From the NCBI RefSeq assembly GCF_053078305.1, contig NZ_CP166879.1: a DNA stretch of 64,000 nucleotides. One strand, 5' to 3'. The translations under genes and the position numbers were made by a program. The notes beneath the pieces were generated by a model. It made no database searches and was not told the DNA's origin. It was given only the letters and a program-made list of their open reading frames with translations. Below are positions 1 through 32,935 of the stretch, piece after piece (the stretch's first letter is position 1; each line of letters starts with the position of its first letter).

Positions 1-2607
1 GAGCTGGATATCAACGTTAAACCCGAGCTTGCGGGCCAGCGCCACCATGCCACGATTGTTTGGCATCGTAATACCATTCAGACGTTGTAGTCCGTGATCT
101 CGCGTATAGGTAATCAACTTTTCCATTAAGCGTCGACCTAAGCCTAACCCTTTGAGATCCGAGCGAACCAGCACGGCAAATTCGGCATCGATGTTATCAG
201 GGTCGGAGATCGCACGCGTGACGCCGAGGATCTCTTCCGTTTGATCAATACGTCGTACCGCTACAAACGCCATTTCCCGATCGTAGTCGATCTGCGTCAT
301 GTTGGCTAAATCTTCATGGGTAAATTCGTTGATCTCGCTAAAGTAGCGGTAATAAAGATCTTCTTTGGTGACTCGCGAAATGAATTGCTGAAGTTGTGGC
401 TCATCTTCTGGCAAAATCGGGCGGAACAAGCAGCGTTCACCGTTTTTCAATTCTACCCATTCTTCCAGCTGATGCGGATAAGGGCGCACTGCCAGCCGAC
501 TCTCGTTATCGCCTTCAAACGGCGCGATATCCAGCGTGACATCCAGCGCGGTAAATTCACTGCCAGAAGCCAGCAAAGGATGAATATCCAGACGCTGAAT
601 TTCCGGGCAATCGACAATCAAGTTGGAAACCTGCACCAGAAGCTGGCTCAAGCCTGCAACATCCAATGGGCGTAGCGCACTGCGCGCACGAATCTTTTTA
701 CTTTTGATCCCCTGAATAACCAGATAGCGGGCCAGGTTCATATTCAGCGGCGGCAGTGCGACGACGGCTTGATCTTCAGGACGCCACTCCACACCGCCTT
801 CACCCAGCATGATCAACGGCCCAAAAACCGGATCGTGCTCAACCACAACCCGCAACTCCTGAGCGCCAGCACGGTTAGCCATACTTTGCACCAACAGGCC
901 GTGGACCCGCGCCTGCGGCCAGGTCATTTTTACGCGATCGAAAATAGCGTTTGCCGCTTGCTGGACTTCATTGGCTGTACGCAGGTACAGCATGACGCCC
1001 TGAACTTCCGATTTATGTGGAATATCCGGCGAACGCAATTTCAGCGCCACCGGATAACCAATCTGTTCGGCAATATGCACCGCTTCGGTGCTATCACTGG
1101 CAATCCAGGTAGGGAGCGTGTTCATGCCATACGCTTGCAGGATGGGCTGAACTTCATGGGTATCGAGCGACGTAGCCCCTTCGGCAATCGCCTGTTGCAA
1201 TAGAAGATGCGCTTTTGCGGTATTGGAAGTCAGATTGCTGGGCAACGCCGGCGTTTCGCGTAGTTGCTTCTGATTACGCCGGTACTCCACCATATGCATA
1301 AAAGCAGTGATGGTTCCTTCCGGGGTACGGTAGGTCGGCAGCCCGGCTTCGCTGAATAAACGTCGTGCCTCTTGCGAGGAGTGCTCGCCGCACCAGTTCG
1401 TCAGCAGAGAAACATACTTGCTGCGGGGATGATGCTTTACCGCTTCAATTAATGCTTGCGCACTTTCTGTTGCGGGAGCAGCGGCGCTGGGCGAATGAAT
1501 AACCATCAGCGCATCAAAATCCTGGCTATGGAGCAGAATGTCCAGCGTTTTGACATAATGCTCGCTGCTGGCGTCATCGCGCAGATCGAGCGGGTTAGAG
1601 ATTGCCACATGTCCTGGCAGTGCATCACGCAGTTTCTGGCAGGTTTCTTCGCTTAGTGTTGCCAGCTTGCCATTGCGTGACCATAAGGCATCCAGCGCCA
1701 GCGCGGCAGGCGCAGCACCGTTGCTGATAATCATCAACCGGTCGCCACGCAGCGGGCGCATATGGCTAAGGGTTTCTACCGCCGAAAACAGTTCGTGGGT
1801 GTCCTGTACCCGCAACAAACCGGCACGCTGAATAGCCGCATCCCATGCCGGGTCCATTCCTGCCGTCGTGTTGAGCAGTCGCTGTGCCGCCGGGCTACGT
1901 CCGCTTTTAATCACCAGAATCGGTTTATTACGCGAGGCACTACGGGCCGCCGAAACAAAGCGTCGCGCGTCGCTTAACTGTTCGAGATAGAGCAGGATGG
2001 CGCTGGTTTTACTGTCGCGTGCCAGATAGTCAAGCAATTCATCAACGTCGATATCCAGGCTGTCGCCGAGCGCAATAAAGTAGGAAAAGCCCATCTCACG
2101 CTGTTGCGCCCAGTCGAGGATGGTGTTGGAGACGGCAGCCGATTGTGAAATAAACGCCAGCTTGCCGCGTTTAATAGGTACCGGCGAAAAGCTGGCATTC
2201 AGACCTTGCCAGGGAGCCAGTAAACCCAGACTGTTTGGTCCAAGCAGGCGCATGTTATGGCGCAGGGCGCAGGCGCGGAGATCTTCGTGTTGCGATGCCG
2301 GGGCGGAAAGAATAATGCAGGTTTTACAGCCTTTCTCGCCGAGCTCTTCCAGAAGAGCAAGATTACGGCTGGCATTGGTACATAAAACCGCAAGGTCGGG
2401 TGTAAAGGGCAAGCTGGCAATATCCGGCCAGGCCAACACACCCAACACCGCTTTCCAGGCTGGCGTCACCGGGAGTACCGGTCCGTTAAAGCCTCCCGCC
2501 AGCAGGTTACGCATCATCAGGTAACCTGCGCGATTGGGTTTCATCGACGCGCCAATTACCGCTATCGATTTTGGTCGCAGTAGTGCTTCCAGTCCTCGCT
2601 GACTCAT
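1..2607 (-). CDS. patZ: Protein lysine acetyltransferase Pka/PatZ (YfiQ); 3' end runs off window start
   Basis: Minus-strand translation from ATG at 2607..2605 reads MSQRGLEALLRPKSIAVIGAS... and continues open to position 1 with a GNAT-like C-terminal region; absent from ORF track because its stop lies outside the window. Confidence 0.85.
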   Translation of the reverse strand, partial: MSQRGLEALLRPKSIAVIGASMKPNRAGYLMMRNLLAGGFNGPVLPVTPAWKAVLGVLAWPDIASLPFTPDLAVLCTNASRNLALLEELGEKGCKTCIILSAPASQHEDLRACALRHNMRLLGPNSLGLLAPWQGLNASFSPVPIKRGKLAFISQSAAVSNTILDWAQQREMGFSYFIALGDSLDIDVDELLDYLARDSKTSAILLYLEQLSDARRFVSAARSASRNKPILVIKSGRSPAAQRLLNTTAGMDPAWDAAIQRAGLLRVQDTHELFSAVETLSHMRPLRGDRLMIISNGAAPAALALDALWSRNGKLATLSEETCQKLRDALPGHVAISNPLDLRDDASSEHYVKTLDILLHSQDFDALMVIHSPSAAAPATESAQALIEAVKHHPRSKYVSLLTNWCGEHSSQEARRLFSEAGLPTYRTPEGTITAFMHMVEYRRNQKQLRETPALPSNLTSNTAKAHLLLQQAIAEGATSLDTHEVQPILQAYGMNTLPTWIASDSTEAVHIAEQIGYPVALKLRSPDIPHKSEVQGVMLYLRTANEVQQAANAIFDRVKMTWPQARVHGLLVQSMANRAGAQELRVVVEHDPVFGPLIMLGEGGVEWRPEDQAVVALPPLNMNLARYLVIQGIKSKKIRARSALRPLDVAGLSQLLVQVSNLIVDCPEIQRLDIHPLLASGSEFTALDVTLDIAPFEGDNESRLAVRPYPHQLEEWVELKNGERCLFRPILPEDEPQLQQFISRVTKEDLYYRYFSEINEFTHEDLANMTQIDYDREMAFVAVRRIDQTEEILGVTRAISDPDNIDAEFAVLVRSDLKGLGLGRRLMEKLITYTRDHGLQRLNGITMPNNRGMVALARKLGFNVDIQL

Positions 2608-5116: not shown

Positions 5117-5806
5117 TTACTCACTCTCTGCCGGTAATACTGGCATCCAGTCAATCGGCGTCTCGCCATGTTGTTCCAGCCACTGATTTGCCAGCACAAA
5201 ATGGTTACAGCCAAAGAATCCACGATGCGCAGAAAGCGGTGACGGATGCGGTGCTTTCAGTACGTGATGGCGTTGCTTATCTATAATCGCCCCTTTCTTT
5301 TGCGCATGCGATCCCCACAACAAAAACACCACGCCTTCGCGATGCTGGTTAATCAGGCTGATTACTTTATCGGTGAAGGTTTCCCAGCCGAGGCTGGCGT
5401 GGGAATGCGCCTGACCTGCGCGTACCGTCAACACAGTATTGAGTAGCAGAACGCCCTGACGCGCCCAGCTTTCAAGATAACCATGATTAGGGCGGGTGAA
5501 GCCCGGAATAGTATTTTCCAGCTCTTTATACATATTCAGCAGTGACGGAGGAGTGGCGATTCCGGGGCGAACGGAAAATGCCAGCCCATGCGCCTGTCCC
5601 GGTCCGTGATAAGGATCCTGGCCGAGAATCACCACTTTAACGTCACCCAACTCGGTAAAGCGGAACGCGTTAAAGACATCTTTTTGTGGTGGATAGATAG
5701 TGACGCCGGACTGCCGCTCGCTGGCGACGGTCTGAAGGGTATTAAGAAAATAGGGTTGCTGCTTCTCTTCAGCCAGCACGTCATGCCAGGTTAATTCGTT
5801 AGCCAT
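5117..5806 (-). CDS. ung: Uracil-DNA glycosylase
   Basis: 229 aa, [11 protein letters not shown]..., [18 protein letters not shown] motif. Confidence 0.95.
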
Positions 5807-5935
5807 CTCGCTCTCCTGCGAATCTTCAATCCGCCTAGCTTAACTGCTTCTTTCTACAGAACAAAATCATGCTCATTTTTTAGACTTAAACGAGTGCAAA
5901 AAAATGTAAATTGGTAAAATTTCACACCCGCATAA

Positions 5936-6003
5936 GTTGATGTAAAACAATAAAATCCATTTGCGACCACAATCGATGTGTGGTTTTTGTTGATTTAAAT
6001 CAA
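5936..6003 (+). promoter_or_regulatory. grcA promoter region with two FNR-type sites (TTGAT-N4-ATCAA at 5990..6003; weaker TTGAT-N4-AACAA at 5936..5949)
   Basis: Exact match to the FNR consensus at 5990..6003 upstream of grcA; grcA is a known FNR-activated gene. Confidence 0.5.
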
Positions 6004-6110
6004 AGAATCAAGGGGGTTTGAGGAGTATATATACACTCAAGCAACAATGGTTTTACCAATTGGCCGCGACAGGCTGAACAAATCAAATAATTTTGCCGGG
6101 GAGGCATCAC

Positions 6111-6494
6111 ATGATTACAGGTATCCAGATTACTAAAGCCGCTAACGACGATCTGCTGAACTCTTTCTGGCTGCTGGACAGCGAAAAAGGCGAAGCACGT
6201 TGCATCGTTGCGAAAGCAGGTTTTGCAGAAGACGAAGTGGTTGCAGTAAGCAAACTGGGTGACATTGAGTACCGTGAAGTTCCAGTAGAAGTGAAACCAG
6301 AAGTTCGCGTTGAAGGTGGTCAGCACCTGAACGTTAACGTTCTGCGTCGTGAAACTCTGGAAGATGCAGTTAAGCATCCGGAAAAATATCCGCAGCTGAC
6401 CATCCGTGTATCCGGTTATGCAGTTCGCTTTAACTCTCTGACTCCGGAACAGCAGCGCGACGTTATCGCTCGTACCTTTACTGAAAGCCTGTAA
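6111..6494 (+). CDS. grcA: Autonomous glycyl radical cofactor GrcA (YfiD)
   Basis: [20 protein letters not shown]... 127 aa with C-terminal glycyl-radical motif RVSGYAV. Confidence 0.92.
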
Positions 6495-6516
6495 GGCTTA
6501 AGTAGCAAGTTACTAA

Positions 6517-6547
6517 GCGGAAGAGGGCGACCTCTTCCGCTTTTTTT
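6517..6547 (+). terminator. Rho-independent terminator after grcA
   Basis: Hairpin gcggaagagg-gcga-cctcttccgc followed by a run of seven T. Confidence 0.7.
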
Positions 6548-6549
6548 CA

Positions 6550-7137
6550 TTAATAGAAAATGCGTACCGCGCAATAGATCAGTAGCAGCGCCAGCACGAT
6601 ATTTAACTGGCGACCATACTGGCGAAACAATCGCTGAAACAGATGCCCCGCCAGCGCCCAGCACACATTACCAAACGTCCCAATCATTGCCAGCAAAACG
6701 CTGACGCCAACTACCCAGCTTAACGCCTGTGTTTGCGGCAGAACAAATGTCGACAGTGCCGTAACACCGTACAAAATGATTTTGACGTTCACAAACTGCA
6801 AAGCAAAGCTGGCCCAAAAACTGATTGGTTTTGTCTGAAGCCCGTCTTCCTTTGTTGGACTGGTAGCGATTTTCCACGCCAGCCAGACAATATATGCCGC
6901 CCCCGCCCAACTCAACAGATGCACAGCTGCCGGGTCGATAACAGCCAGTGAAAACGAAATGCCCGCACACAGCAACATGACGATTAAAAATCCCAGACTC
7001 ATCCCTGCCAGCACGCGGGTACTCTGATGAAATCCGTGCGTTGTGGCTGAGCTAAGGGCGAGAATATTGTTCGGTCCTGGCGTCATGGCGGTAATCAGGG
7101 TGTAAGTCCAAAAAGCACTTAAAAGGGTCGGTGTCAC
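6550..7137 (-). CDS. eamB: Cysteine/O-acetylserine exporter EamB (YfiK), LysE/RhtB family
   Basis: 195 aa multi-pass membrane protein MTPTLLSAFWTYTLITAMTPGPNN... typical RhtB-family N-terminus. Confidence 0.85.
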   Translation of the reverse strand: MTPTLLSAFWTYTLITAMTPGPNNILALSSATTHGFHQSTRVLAGMSLGFLIVMLLCAGISFSLAVIDPAAVHLLSWAGAAYIVWLAWKIATSPTKEDGLQTKPISFWASFALQFVNVKIILYGVTALSTFVLPQTQALSWVVGVSVLLAMIGTFGNVCWALAGHLFQRLFRQYGRQLNIVLALLLIYCAVRIFY

Positions 7138-13630: not shown

Positions 13631-14586
13631 TGAAGCAACTTTGGTTTGCCATGTCATTAGTGACAGGTAGCCTGTTATTCTCTGCTAACGCCTCGGCCAC
13701 TCCCGCGTCCGGGGCGTTATTACAGCAGATGAACCTGGCCAGTCAGTCACTGAATTACGAGCTGTCATTCATCAGCATCAATAAACAGGGTGTTGAGTCT
13801 CTGCGTTATCGACATGCACGCCTCGATAACCGTCCTCTTGCACAATTGTTGCAAATGGATGGCCCGCGCCGGGAAGTGGTACAGCGCGGCAATGAAATCA
13901 GCTATTTTGAACCGGGCCTTGAACCGTTTACTCTTAATGGCGATTACATTGTTGATTCTCTGCCATCGCTCATCTATACCGATTTCAAACGCCTTTCTCC
14001 TTACTACGACTTTATCTCCGTCGGGCGCACGCGTATTGCTGATCGTCTTTGTGAAGTTATTCGCGTGGTTGCTCGTGATGGCACACGCTACAGCTACATC
14101 GTGTGGATGGACACCGAATCGAAATTACCGATGCGGGTTGATCTTCTTGATCGCGATGGTGAAACGCTGGAACAATTTCGCGTGATTGCTTTTAACGTCA
14201 ATCAGGATATCAGCAGCAGTATGCAGACGCTGGCGAAGGCAAATTTGCCGCCGTTGCTTTCTGTTCCTGTAGGTGAAAAAGCTAAATTCAGCTGGACGCC
14301 AACCTGGTTGCCACAGGGTTTTAGCGAAGTTTCCAGTAGTCGACGTCCGCTACCGACGATGGACAACATGCCTATCGAATCACGTCTCTATTCCGACGGA
14401 TTATTCAGCTTCTCGGTAAACGTTAACCGCGCTACGCCATCGAGCACCGATCAGATGTTGCGCACCGGACGCAGAACCGTCAGTACAAGCGTACGTGATA
14501 ACGCTGAAATCACCATTGTCGGTGAACTGCCGCCGCAAACGGCGAAACGCATTGCCGAGAATATTAAGTTCGGGGCAGCGCAATGA
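13630..14586 (+). CDS. rseB: Sigma-E regulatory protein RseB
   Basis: 318 aa with signal peptide MKQLWFAMSLVTGSLLFSANASA; operon position after rseA. Confidence 0.9.
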   Translation: MKQLWFAMSLVTGSLLFSANASATPASGALLQQMNLASQSLNYELSFISINKQGVESLRYRHARLDNRPLAQLLQMDGPRREVVQRGNEISYFEPGLEPFTLNGDYIVDSLPSLIYTDFKRLSPYYDFISVGRTRIADRLCEVIRVVARDGTRYSYIVWMDTESKLPMRVDLLDRDGETLEQFRVIAFNVNQDISSSMQTLAKANLPPLLSVPVGEKAKFSWTPTWLPQGFSEVSSSRRPLPTMDNMPIESRLYSDGLFSFSVNVNRATPSSTDQMLRTGRRTVSTSVRDNAEITIVGELPPQTAKRIAENIKFGAAQ

Positions 14587-15062
14587 TCAAAGAGTGGGCT
14601 ACCGTCGTCTCCTGGCAAAACGGGCAGGCGCTGGTCAGTTGTGATGTTAAAGCCTCATGCAGCAGCTGCGCTTCACGCGCCGGTTGCGGTAGCCGCGTGT
14701 TGAATAAACTTGGCCCGCAAACCACGCATACCATTGTCGTACCCTGTGATGAGCCGTTAGTGCCGGGGCAAAAAGTGGAATTGGGGATCGCCGAAGGCAG
14801 CCTGCTTAGCTCCGCATTACTGGTTTATATGTCGCCGCTGGTGGGATTATTCCTCATCGCTTCGCTATTTCAGCTACTCTTTGCTTCTGACGTCGCAGCA
14901 TTATGTGGTGCGGTCCTCGGCGGTATTGGCGGGTTCCTGATTGCGCGTGGCTACTCGCGTAAGTTTGCTGCCCGGGCAGAATGGCAACCGATCATCTTAA
15001 GCGTGGCATTGCCGCCTGGCCTTGTGCGATTTGAAACATCTTCGGAAGACGCGAGCCAGTGA
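14583..15062 (+). CDS. rseC: RseC (SoxR-reducing system component)
   Basis: 159 aa, Cys-rich N-terminus and two TM helices; overlaps rseB stop. Confidence 0.88.
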   Translation: MIKEWATVVSWQNGQALVSCDVKASCSSCASRAGCGSRVLNKLGPQTTHTIVVPCDEPLVPGQKVELGIAEGSLLSSALLVYMSPLVGLFLIASLFQLLFASDVAALCGAVLGGIGGFLIARGYSRKFAARAEWQPIILSVALPPGLVRFETSSEDASQ

Positions 15063-15259
15063 TTTCACTGGCTTTGTTGCATTTTGCATAACAAATGCGA
15101 GGACGTTTCCAGATACCACAATCCATACGGTATGAACATTTCCTCGCCTCAATGTTGTAGTGTAGAATGCGGCGTTTCTATTAATACAGACGTTAAGCTC
15201 AGAACAGCGACTTCTAAAAGCCTGGTTAACCGGGCATTAAGGCACAATAATCATACTTT

Positions 15260-17059
<1,800 letters not shown>

Positions 17060-18100: not shown

Positions 18101-18189
18101 TATGAGATAAATCTCCCGTGGCTAACGACATCCCCCGTCGTTGTGTATAGAATATTCCCCCGAAGTTTAAGGTTGGCACCTCCAGGTTG

Positions 18190-19904
<1,715 letters not shown>

Positions 19905-21767: not shown

Positions 21768-21793
21768 AAATAATACCGTTCTCTTTAAAAAGT

Positions 21794-21826
21794 AAAACCC
21801 CCGAACTGGTAAGGAACGGGGGTTTT
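21794..21826. terminator. Bidirectional hairpin terminator (acpS operon / ohsC)
   Basis: aaaaccccc-g...c-gggggtttt perfect palindrome with flanking A/T runs on both strands. Confidence 0.7.
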
Positions 21827-21890
21827 ACTTTGTAACTTTAATTTAGTGCAGCACGCACCCTCAACAACAGCGATTATGGATCAGGGTAGT
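21795..21890 (-). ncRNA. ohsC: Putative OhsC antitoxin sRNA of the shoB/ohsC type I toxin-antitoxin locus (boundaries approximate)
   Basis: Lies divergently upstream of shoB, ends at the palindromic terminator, and contains tgcagcacgcaccctcaacaa, a near-copy of tgcagcatgcaccctcaataa in the shoB 5' UTR (22094..22114). Confidence 0.4.
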
Positions 21891-31633: not shown

Positions 31634-32935
31634 TCAGATGAGGTCTGCGGTTAGCGTATCGTCGGATACGTCGTCGAAATCATTTACAGGGTTGATATTG
31701 AGTGCGGGGCGTGGGTCTGACTCGGGAACGACGGTTGGTTTACCATCAGCTCGTGTTATCAGTGCCTCGACTTTTGACCAACGGCGTGGACTGGCCTTTT
31801 TGATAAGTTTTTCGGCTTTTGTGGGACTAATAAGTTTAAAGTCGAATACTTCTTCAGTTTTGTACCTGAACTGGTCCTTCAGAAGTGCGCGAGCTGCCTC
31901 TTCATCACTCCAGGCCCGGTTACCTTGTTTTCCTGTTACCAGTTTAAACCCCGGTACCGGATGTCCGGCATTGAGTTCATTGTGAACCCGGTCCCGTACT
32001 GCCTTTAGCCAGGATTCAATAAAGTCGGCCTGGCTATAGATCTCCGCAAGCTGCTCAATGGTTAACAGAGGTACACGTGCGCTGGCATTGGTGATTATTT
32101 CGCTGACAGGCTTTGTCAGATCTTCAAAATCGCTGGCCGCTGTTTGTAAATGCTGCATTTTCTGGGCAGTGCAAATAGCTTTTGCTTTACAGAAGCGGCA
32201 CTGTTTTTCTCCAGGTATGAAGTTTTCCAGCGGTAGTGTCTCAATGCCTTCGCATTCAGCAATATTGAGAACAAGGATCGCACTGGTTGCGGCCTCCTGT
32301 GCCCGTTCACCGAAAGACTGAAGTTCCTGTACGGTTAACGACCATTCTGAAACGTGGTTGAGCCTTGGCTGGTGAATAAATAATCTTACAGTCTCAAAGT
32401 CATACAGCATGCTGAATTGTTCGAGCGCACCCAGAGCATACAGTTGTAGTTGCTCATTTTGTTCTGCATCAATGCGGACGCCTTTGCCATATTTCAGGTC
32501 GTGGATTTGTAATTCGTTACCAGCGATGATTATGCCGTCGGCAGTTCCGAAAGATTCTTCCACCCCCGTTATATGTGAGAAATCAACACGTTGTTCAACC
32601 AATAGTTCATTATTCTGTGCAAGAGTCCAGACCGTATCAACATACCGGCCAACGGCTTCGACCATTTCATCATCCACCTGTGGGCCAGATGTATCATCAG
32701 GATTTTCGCGAAGGGGGTATGAGCCGAGAAACATAGAAACATTGCATCCGGCGTAGTGTTCCGGGTGGCTTTGCCTGTTTCGTAGAACTTTTTCAGCAAG
32801 CGCGTGCGCTGCAGTGCCCTCGATTGCAAAAGTTGTTTCTTTATCCGGTTGTGTGGCCTCCAGCGCCAGACTTCCTGGGCAGCGCATCCATCGATGCGCT
32901 GATGATGGAGAAAGTTGTGCATGAACGTCTGGCAT
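31634..32935 (-). CDS. PD-(D/E)XK nuclease, Cas4/RecB-like (DUF2800-like)
   Basis: 433 aa; C-terminal cysteine cluster [10 protein letters not shown] plus additional Cys residues resembling a Cas4-type Fe-S motif. Confidence 0.6.

Follow-up and report, generated by a model that had tools for sequence, protein, structure and literature searches.

The two FNR-type motifs upstream of grcA in the 64-kb window, by which we mean the whole stretch of DNA analysed, are already known: they are the long-studied pair of FNR sites of the Escherichia coli grcA (yfiD) promoter. We read the region as the native E. coli grcA promoter, activated by FNR in class II fashion, damped by a weaker site further upstream and reaching its peak at low oxygen, and we assign this reading a probability of about 95%. 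The sites themselves, their identity with the K-12 sequence, their spacing, their conservation and the geometry of the −10 element come from the present analysis, while the binding of FNR, its activating effect from −40.5 and down-regulating effect from −93.5, and the maximum of expression under microaerobic conditions are taken from the literature on K-12.

The promoter is located in the 304-bp intergenic region between ung (5117..5806, minus strand, start codon at 5806) and the divergently oriented grcA (6111..6494, plus strand), which encodes the autonomous glycyl radical cofactor of 127 aa. The open reading frame of grcA scored 233.9 bits on the TIGR04365 equivalog model (cut-off 170), and in further E. 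coli genomes with the identical DNA the gene is annotated as grcA by RefSeq. Positions 5780..6130 were matched in 5425 of the 5426 complete E. coli genomes, each time as a single chromosomal copy with ung and grcA annotated, which identifies the window as part of an E. coli chromosome. In a direct reading of 5500..6700, a Shine-Dalgarno sequence, GGAGG, was noted at 6100..6104 (plus strand), 6 nt 5' of the ATG, and is kept in an alignment of ten genera. Downstream of the gene, a strong intrinsic terminator-like hairpin with a 12-bp stem including seven GC pairs and a subsequent TTTTT run occupies 6515..6542 (plus strand), so that grcA is monocistronic. A search of Rfam gave no match in the grcA leader or in the intergenic region. 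Elsewhere in the window, matches above the gathering threshold were obtained for AsrC, the antisense RNA of rseC (14547..15378, minus strand), for the cis-regulatory element rncO (18162..18376, plus strand) and for the antitoxin sRNA ohsC (21789..21865, minus strand).

A preliminary description of this DNA had placed an exact TTGAT-N4-ATCAA site at 5990..6003 and a degenerate copy about 54 bp upstream, both ahead of grcA. Pattern search confirmed the former, as TTGATTTAAATCAA at 5990..6003 (no strand assigned, centre 5996.5; FNR I) agrees with TTGATNNNNATCAA (TTGAT-N4-ATCAA) at zero mismatches and is the sole exact match in the 64-kb window. The degenerate copy is likewise present, namely TTGATGTAAAACAA at 5937..5950 (no strand assigned, centre 5943.5; FNR II), which deviates from the FNR consensus by one mismatch (AACAA for ATCAA); its distance to FNR I, however, amounts to 53 bp from centre to centre, and the region begins at 5937 instead of 5936, one base later than described. 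Both sites lie inside the ung–grcA intergenic region and do precede grcA.

Exact consensus sites are expected 0.15 times per shuffle of the window, with at least one occurring in 15 of 100 shuffles, and sites with at most one mismatch were found five times compared to 2.65 expected, a window-wide number that is not striking by itself. The other one-mismatch matches, located at 1724..1737, 13768..13781 and 32459..32472, are within chance in number. The non-random feature is the pairing of an exact with a one-mismatch site. In first-order Markov simulations based on the composition of the 304-bp, 62% A+T ung–grcA intergenic region, 14 of 200,000 trials produced an exact site accompanied by a second one with no more than one mismatch, and a single one of 200,000 had such a pair at a spacing of 52–54 bp. 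Simulation of the whole window yielded a pair within 70 bp in 0 of 300 runs.

Alignment with K-12 MG1655 (NC_000913.3) revealed that both 14-mers are base-for-base identical. Six substitutions separate the two sequences over 341 aligned bases, all of them outside the FNR cores and within a 43-bp stretch around FNR I: four of them (5973, 5975, 5977 and 5989) fall into the spacer between the sites, and the remaining two (6007 and 6015) into the segment that links FNR I with the −10 element. Identity of at least 99% over 5900..6113 was found in 35 of 5425 E. coli genomes, and the promoter allele of the window is thus rare. An FNR ChIP-seq peak at 2,714,605 (U00096.2), converted with an offset of +1978 that we take to apply between U00096.2 and U00096.3, corresponds to approximately position 5977 of the window, between the two sites.

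FNR sites at −40.5 and −93.5 of the yfiD promoter are credited to Green et al. 1998 in two later papers (PMC3688515, PMC11264516), and since the observed 53 bp equal 93.5 minus 40.5, FNR I and FNR II fit the published class II activating and down-regulating positions, respectively. In Myers et al. 2013 (PMC3688515), yfiD counts among the operons under direct activation by FNR; a ChIP-seq peak is given for it, together with a site at −40.5 for which Green 1998 is again cited. The title of the work of Green, Baldwin and Richardson from 1998 already places a further FNR site, one that down-regulates, at −93.5, and FNR bound at this position was stated to suppress activation despite occupancy of the downstream site (PMC3445967; PMC11264516, from 2024), in the case of yfiD without involvement of the alpha-CTD (Lee and Busby 2012, PMC3445967).

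Further support comes from a metabolic-engineering paper of 2023 (PMC10208419), the 129-bp wild-type promoter of which corresponds to window positions 5926..6054. Under full anaerobiosis this fragment showed low activity, and of all promoters tested the one with the FNR II point mutation was the strongest. The mutant primer m097 in the supplement converts TTGAT to TTTAT and AACAA to AAAAA, thereby changing exactly the G and the C of TTGAT/AACAA at 5937..5950, while the 78-bp 'P1' promoter, which carries FNR I only, begins 3' of FNR II. The two 14-mers of the window are both found in the primers published for these constructs. According to Marshall et al. 2001, as cited in the same paper, microaerobic activity exceeds anaerobic activity. 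The FNR regulation of grcA suggested in the preliminary description is hence supported by the identity with K-12, the published positions −40.5 and −93.5, the ChIP-seq data and the FNR II mutant primers, and the comparison with the characterised yfiD/grcA promoter that it proposed was carried out, both sites and the 53-bp spacing being in agreement. What had been missed is that the upstream site is a down-regulating one and not a second activator site.

The core promoter has the geometry of class II activation, with a consensus site over the −35 position, a −10 element about 29–30 bp from the site centre and no −35 hexamer of its own. A sigma-70 consensus scan over 5700..6700 returned no −35/−10 pair, in keeping with an activator site, FNR I, taking the −35 position. 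The −10 element TATATA (6026..6031, plus strand) starts 29.5 bp from the centre of FNR I. Its TATA at 6026..6029 reached maximal information content when 62 distinct sequences were stacked with FNR I as the anchor, and is invariant in the alignment of ten genera. From the published −40.5 and the conserved position of the −10 element, we infer that transcription in the strain of the window starts at about 6037 (plus strand), i.e. at the FNR I centre plus 40.5, which would leave a 5' UTR of 74 nt. The −10 position is compatible with a start 40.5 bp 3' of the FNR I centre, and the implied +1 is a T, less usual than a purine. A literature search for the transcription start site of grcA in combination with FNR gave no match, and among the entries listed in the genome-wide start site supplements of Kim 2012 and Ettwiller 2016 there was none near the expected grcA coordinates.

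To place the arrangement in a wider context, 80 loci from species-representative genomes encoding GrcA were covered in a single scan. Two FNR-like sites 53 bp apart are present upstream of grcA in 55 of these loci and sites 52 bp apart in six more (61/80), all of which belong to the Enterobacterales. The genera concerned are Escherichia, Citrobacter, Enterobacter, Klebsiella, Kosakonia, Cedecea, Hafnia and Edwardsiella as well as Yersinia, Serratia, Rahnella, Dickeya, Pectobacterium, Brenneria and Erwinia. Almost all of the 61 loci match the consensus at the proximal site or deviate from it by at most one mismatch, a Mixta locus having two mismatches. In the distal site, TTGAT is kept and the other arm is almost always AACAA or AACAT, so that the mismatch expected to weaken this site is conserved in its own right. 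In the stack of 62 sequences, information content peaks at both FNR sites, the −10 element and a PdhR-like box, and is highest at FNR I. The ten-genus alignment shows the two sites, the −10 element, the PdhR-like box and the Shine-Dalgarno sequence to be invariant, while the sequence of the spacer varies at constant length. Within E. coli, both sites are invariant in a spread sample of genomes that included the most divergent match, with polymorphism confined to 5928..5930, 5957..5989, 6007..6018 and parts of the leader.

Outside these 61 loci, the architecture upstream of grcA differs from the enterobacterial 52–53 bp layout in the Pasteurellaceae, where seven loci contain two FNR-like sites 42–44 bp apart, i.e. 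four helical turns, at approximate locus positions 1330..1500 upstream of the gene. Downstream of the two sites, these loci also share a conserved promoter-like element, TTGAAA-N16/17-TGaTAAAAT, about 35–37 bp from the centre of the proximal site. Three Pantoea loci carry a single FNR-like site (at most two mismatches) upstream of grcA, which is nearer to the start codon (−83 to −107), and the tandem layout seems to have been lost there.

These data bear on the role of the upstream site, which could in principle serve the divergent ung or co-activate grcA instead of damping it. The two genes share the intergenic region, in which the site is 137 bp away from the start codon of ung, and at other promoters a further activator site placed in tandem upstream often increases transcription (PMC3445967). 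On the other hand, the conserved quantity is the 52–53 bp spacing to FNR I and not the distance to ung, the FNR regulon paper (PMC3688515) makes no mention of ung, and the 129-bp grcA fragment, from which ung is absent, gives a higher anaerobic output once FNR II is deleted or point-mutated (PMC10208419). As upstream FNR is, moreover, stated to suppress activation (PMC3445967, PMC11264516), we consider both variants very unlikely.

The same low likelihood attaches to the idea that the sites are bound mainly by CRP, the paralogue of FNR, and that the promoter follows carbon source and not oxygen. A consensus scan for TGTGA-N6-TCACA with up to two mismatches matched neither site, and a CRP-dependent promoter was rejected on this basis. 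Both sites carry TTGAT, the FNR-specific half-site, and not GTGA. In addition, FNR ChIP-seq and FNR-dependent expression have been published for yfiD (PMC3688515).

Finally, that both motifs arose by chance in an A+T-rich intergenic region and play no regulatory role would be in line with the unenriched number of sites in the window (5 vs 2.65) and the exact site in 15/100 whole-window shuffles, but this least probable of the explanations is effectively refuted by conservation and published data, as the pair is very improbable at local composition (14/200,000, and 1/200,000 at the observed spacing), Enterobacterales have kept both sites at their spacing, including the mismatch, while the spacer sequence drifts, and ChIP-seq and mutagenesis support function.

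Beyond the FNR sites, a PdhR-like palindrome, AATGGTTTTACCAAT, occupies 6046..6060 (no strand assigned), at approximately +10 to +24 of the inferred transcript, and is one mismatch away from ATTGGTNNNACCAAT (ATTGGT-N3-ACCAAT). This box is invariant across the ten genera and coincides with one of the information-content peaks of the 62-sequence stack. It is probably an operator of the pyruvate-responsive repressor PdhR, an assignment of our own that is made plausible by the published repression of yfiD by PdhR, stated in PMC3181329 with reference to Wyborn 2002. Inputs of ArcA, PdhR and Fis to grcA have been reported in the literature, and of these we could place the PdhR-like box alone. A scan for ArcA sites (TGTTA-N6-TGTTA, at most two mismatches) gave no match between ung and grcA, nor was the window enriched in such sites.

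The 39-bp spacer between the FNR sites (5951..5989, no strand assigned) is fixed in length and variable in sequence. It contains ACCACA-N7-TGTGGT, a semi-conserved inverted repeat, and then a T5 run (5965..5989); this element was flagged as terminator-like and has a predicted RNA minimum free energy of −7.6 kcal/mol. Across the 61 enterobacterial spacers, folding energies are modestly below those of shuffled sequences (mean z −1.1; z below −2 in 14 of them), and several genera share GTGTGGTTTTT immediately 5' of FNR I. The hairpin at 5965..5985 was rejected as a terminator because it is located upstream of the grcA start, and no plus-strand gene reads into it; the repeat more probably serves as a site for a protein or acts through DNA shape.

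Combining these observations with the K-12 literature, the promoter may be pictured as follows. Under oxygen limitation, dimeric [4Fe-4S] FNR would bind FNR I (5990..6003), which replaces a −35 element, and bring RNA polymerase to TATATA at 6026..6031 by class II activation, with transcription beginning near 6037. FNR II (5937..5950), five helical turns upstream, would be filled only when active FNR is abundant and would then damp the activation exerted from FNR I, so that expression of grcA should peak when FNR activity is intermediate, the state expected under microaerobiosis, with oxygen low but not absent. The PdhR-like operator just 3' of the start would add control by pyruvate. GrcA acts as a replacement glycyl-radical domain for pyruvate formate-lyase damaged by oxygen (PMC10208419, PMC3181329), and a microaerobic peak fits this role in repair, as low oxygen would be the condition under which GrcA is needed to rescue the oxygen-cleaved enzyme.

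Among known systems, the closest is the K-12 yfiD (grcA) promoter itself (Green 1998; Marshall 2001; Wyborn 2002), which represents the same locus with the gene order ung / grcA / eamB / yfiE / srmB and has identical FNR sites, 53-bp spacing, −10 element and PdhR-like box, differing from that of the window in the six substitutions outside the FNR cores. With the class II FNR promoters of narG, dmsA, nirB and pflB P6 (site at −41.5/−40.5), it shares a consensus site over the −35 position, the lack of a −35 hexamer and a −10 element starting about 29.5 bp from the site centre. Unlike these canonical representatives, grcA possesses a repressing FNR site in addition, located five helical turns further upstream, an arrangement described as being otherwise a feature of FNR-repressed promoters (PMC11264516). 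In tandem CRP promoters, an upstream protein of the same family likewise lowers activation by the proximal dimer, but there repression proceeds via the alpha-CTD of RNA polymerase, whereas yfiD manages without it (Lee and Busby 2012, PMC3445967).

The yfiD/grcA promoter has been dissected since 1998 and serves as an oxygen-responsive part in metabolic engineering. A more tentative and rather doubtful extension would combine three proposals: that an ancestral 'band-pass' promoter of the Enterobacterales consisted of a consensus site and a weakened site five turns upstream, that the Pasteurellaceae have in its stead their 42–44 bp layout, placed before a full −35/extended −10 promoter, and that 5965..5989 is the operator of a further regulator. 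The cross-species survey makes a small addition to what was known, namely that many enterobacterial genera keep the spacing of 53 bp as well as the one mismatch that weakens the upstream site. Because both are conserved in this way, the sequence comparison supports the view that the damping site is selected for, and may serve peak expression of grcA under microaerobic conditions, and is not incidental.
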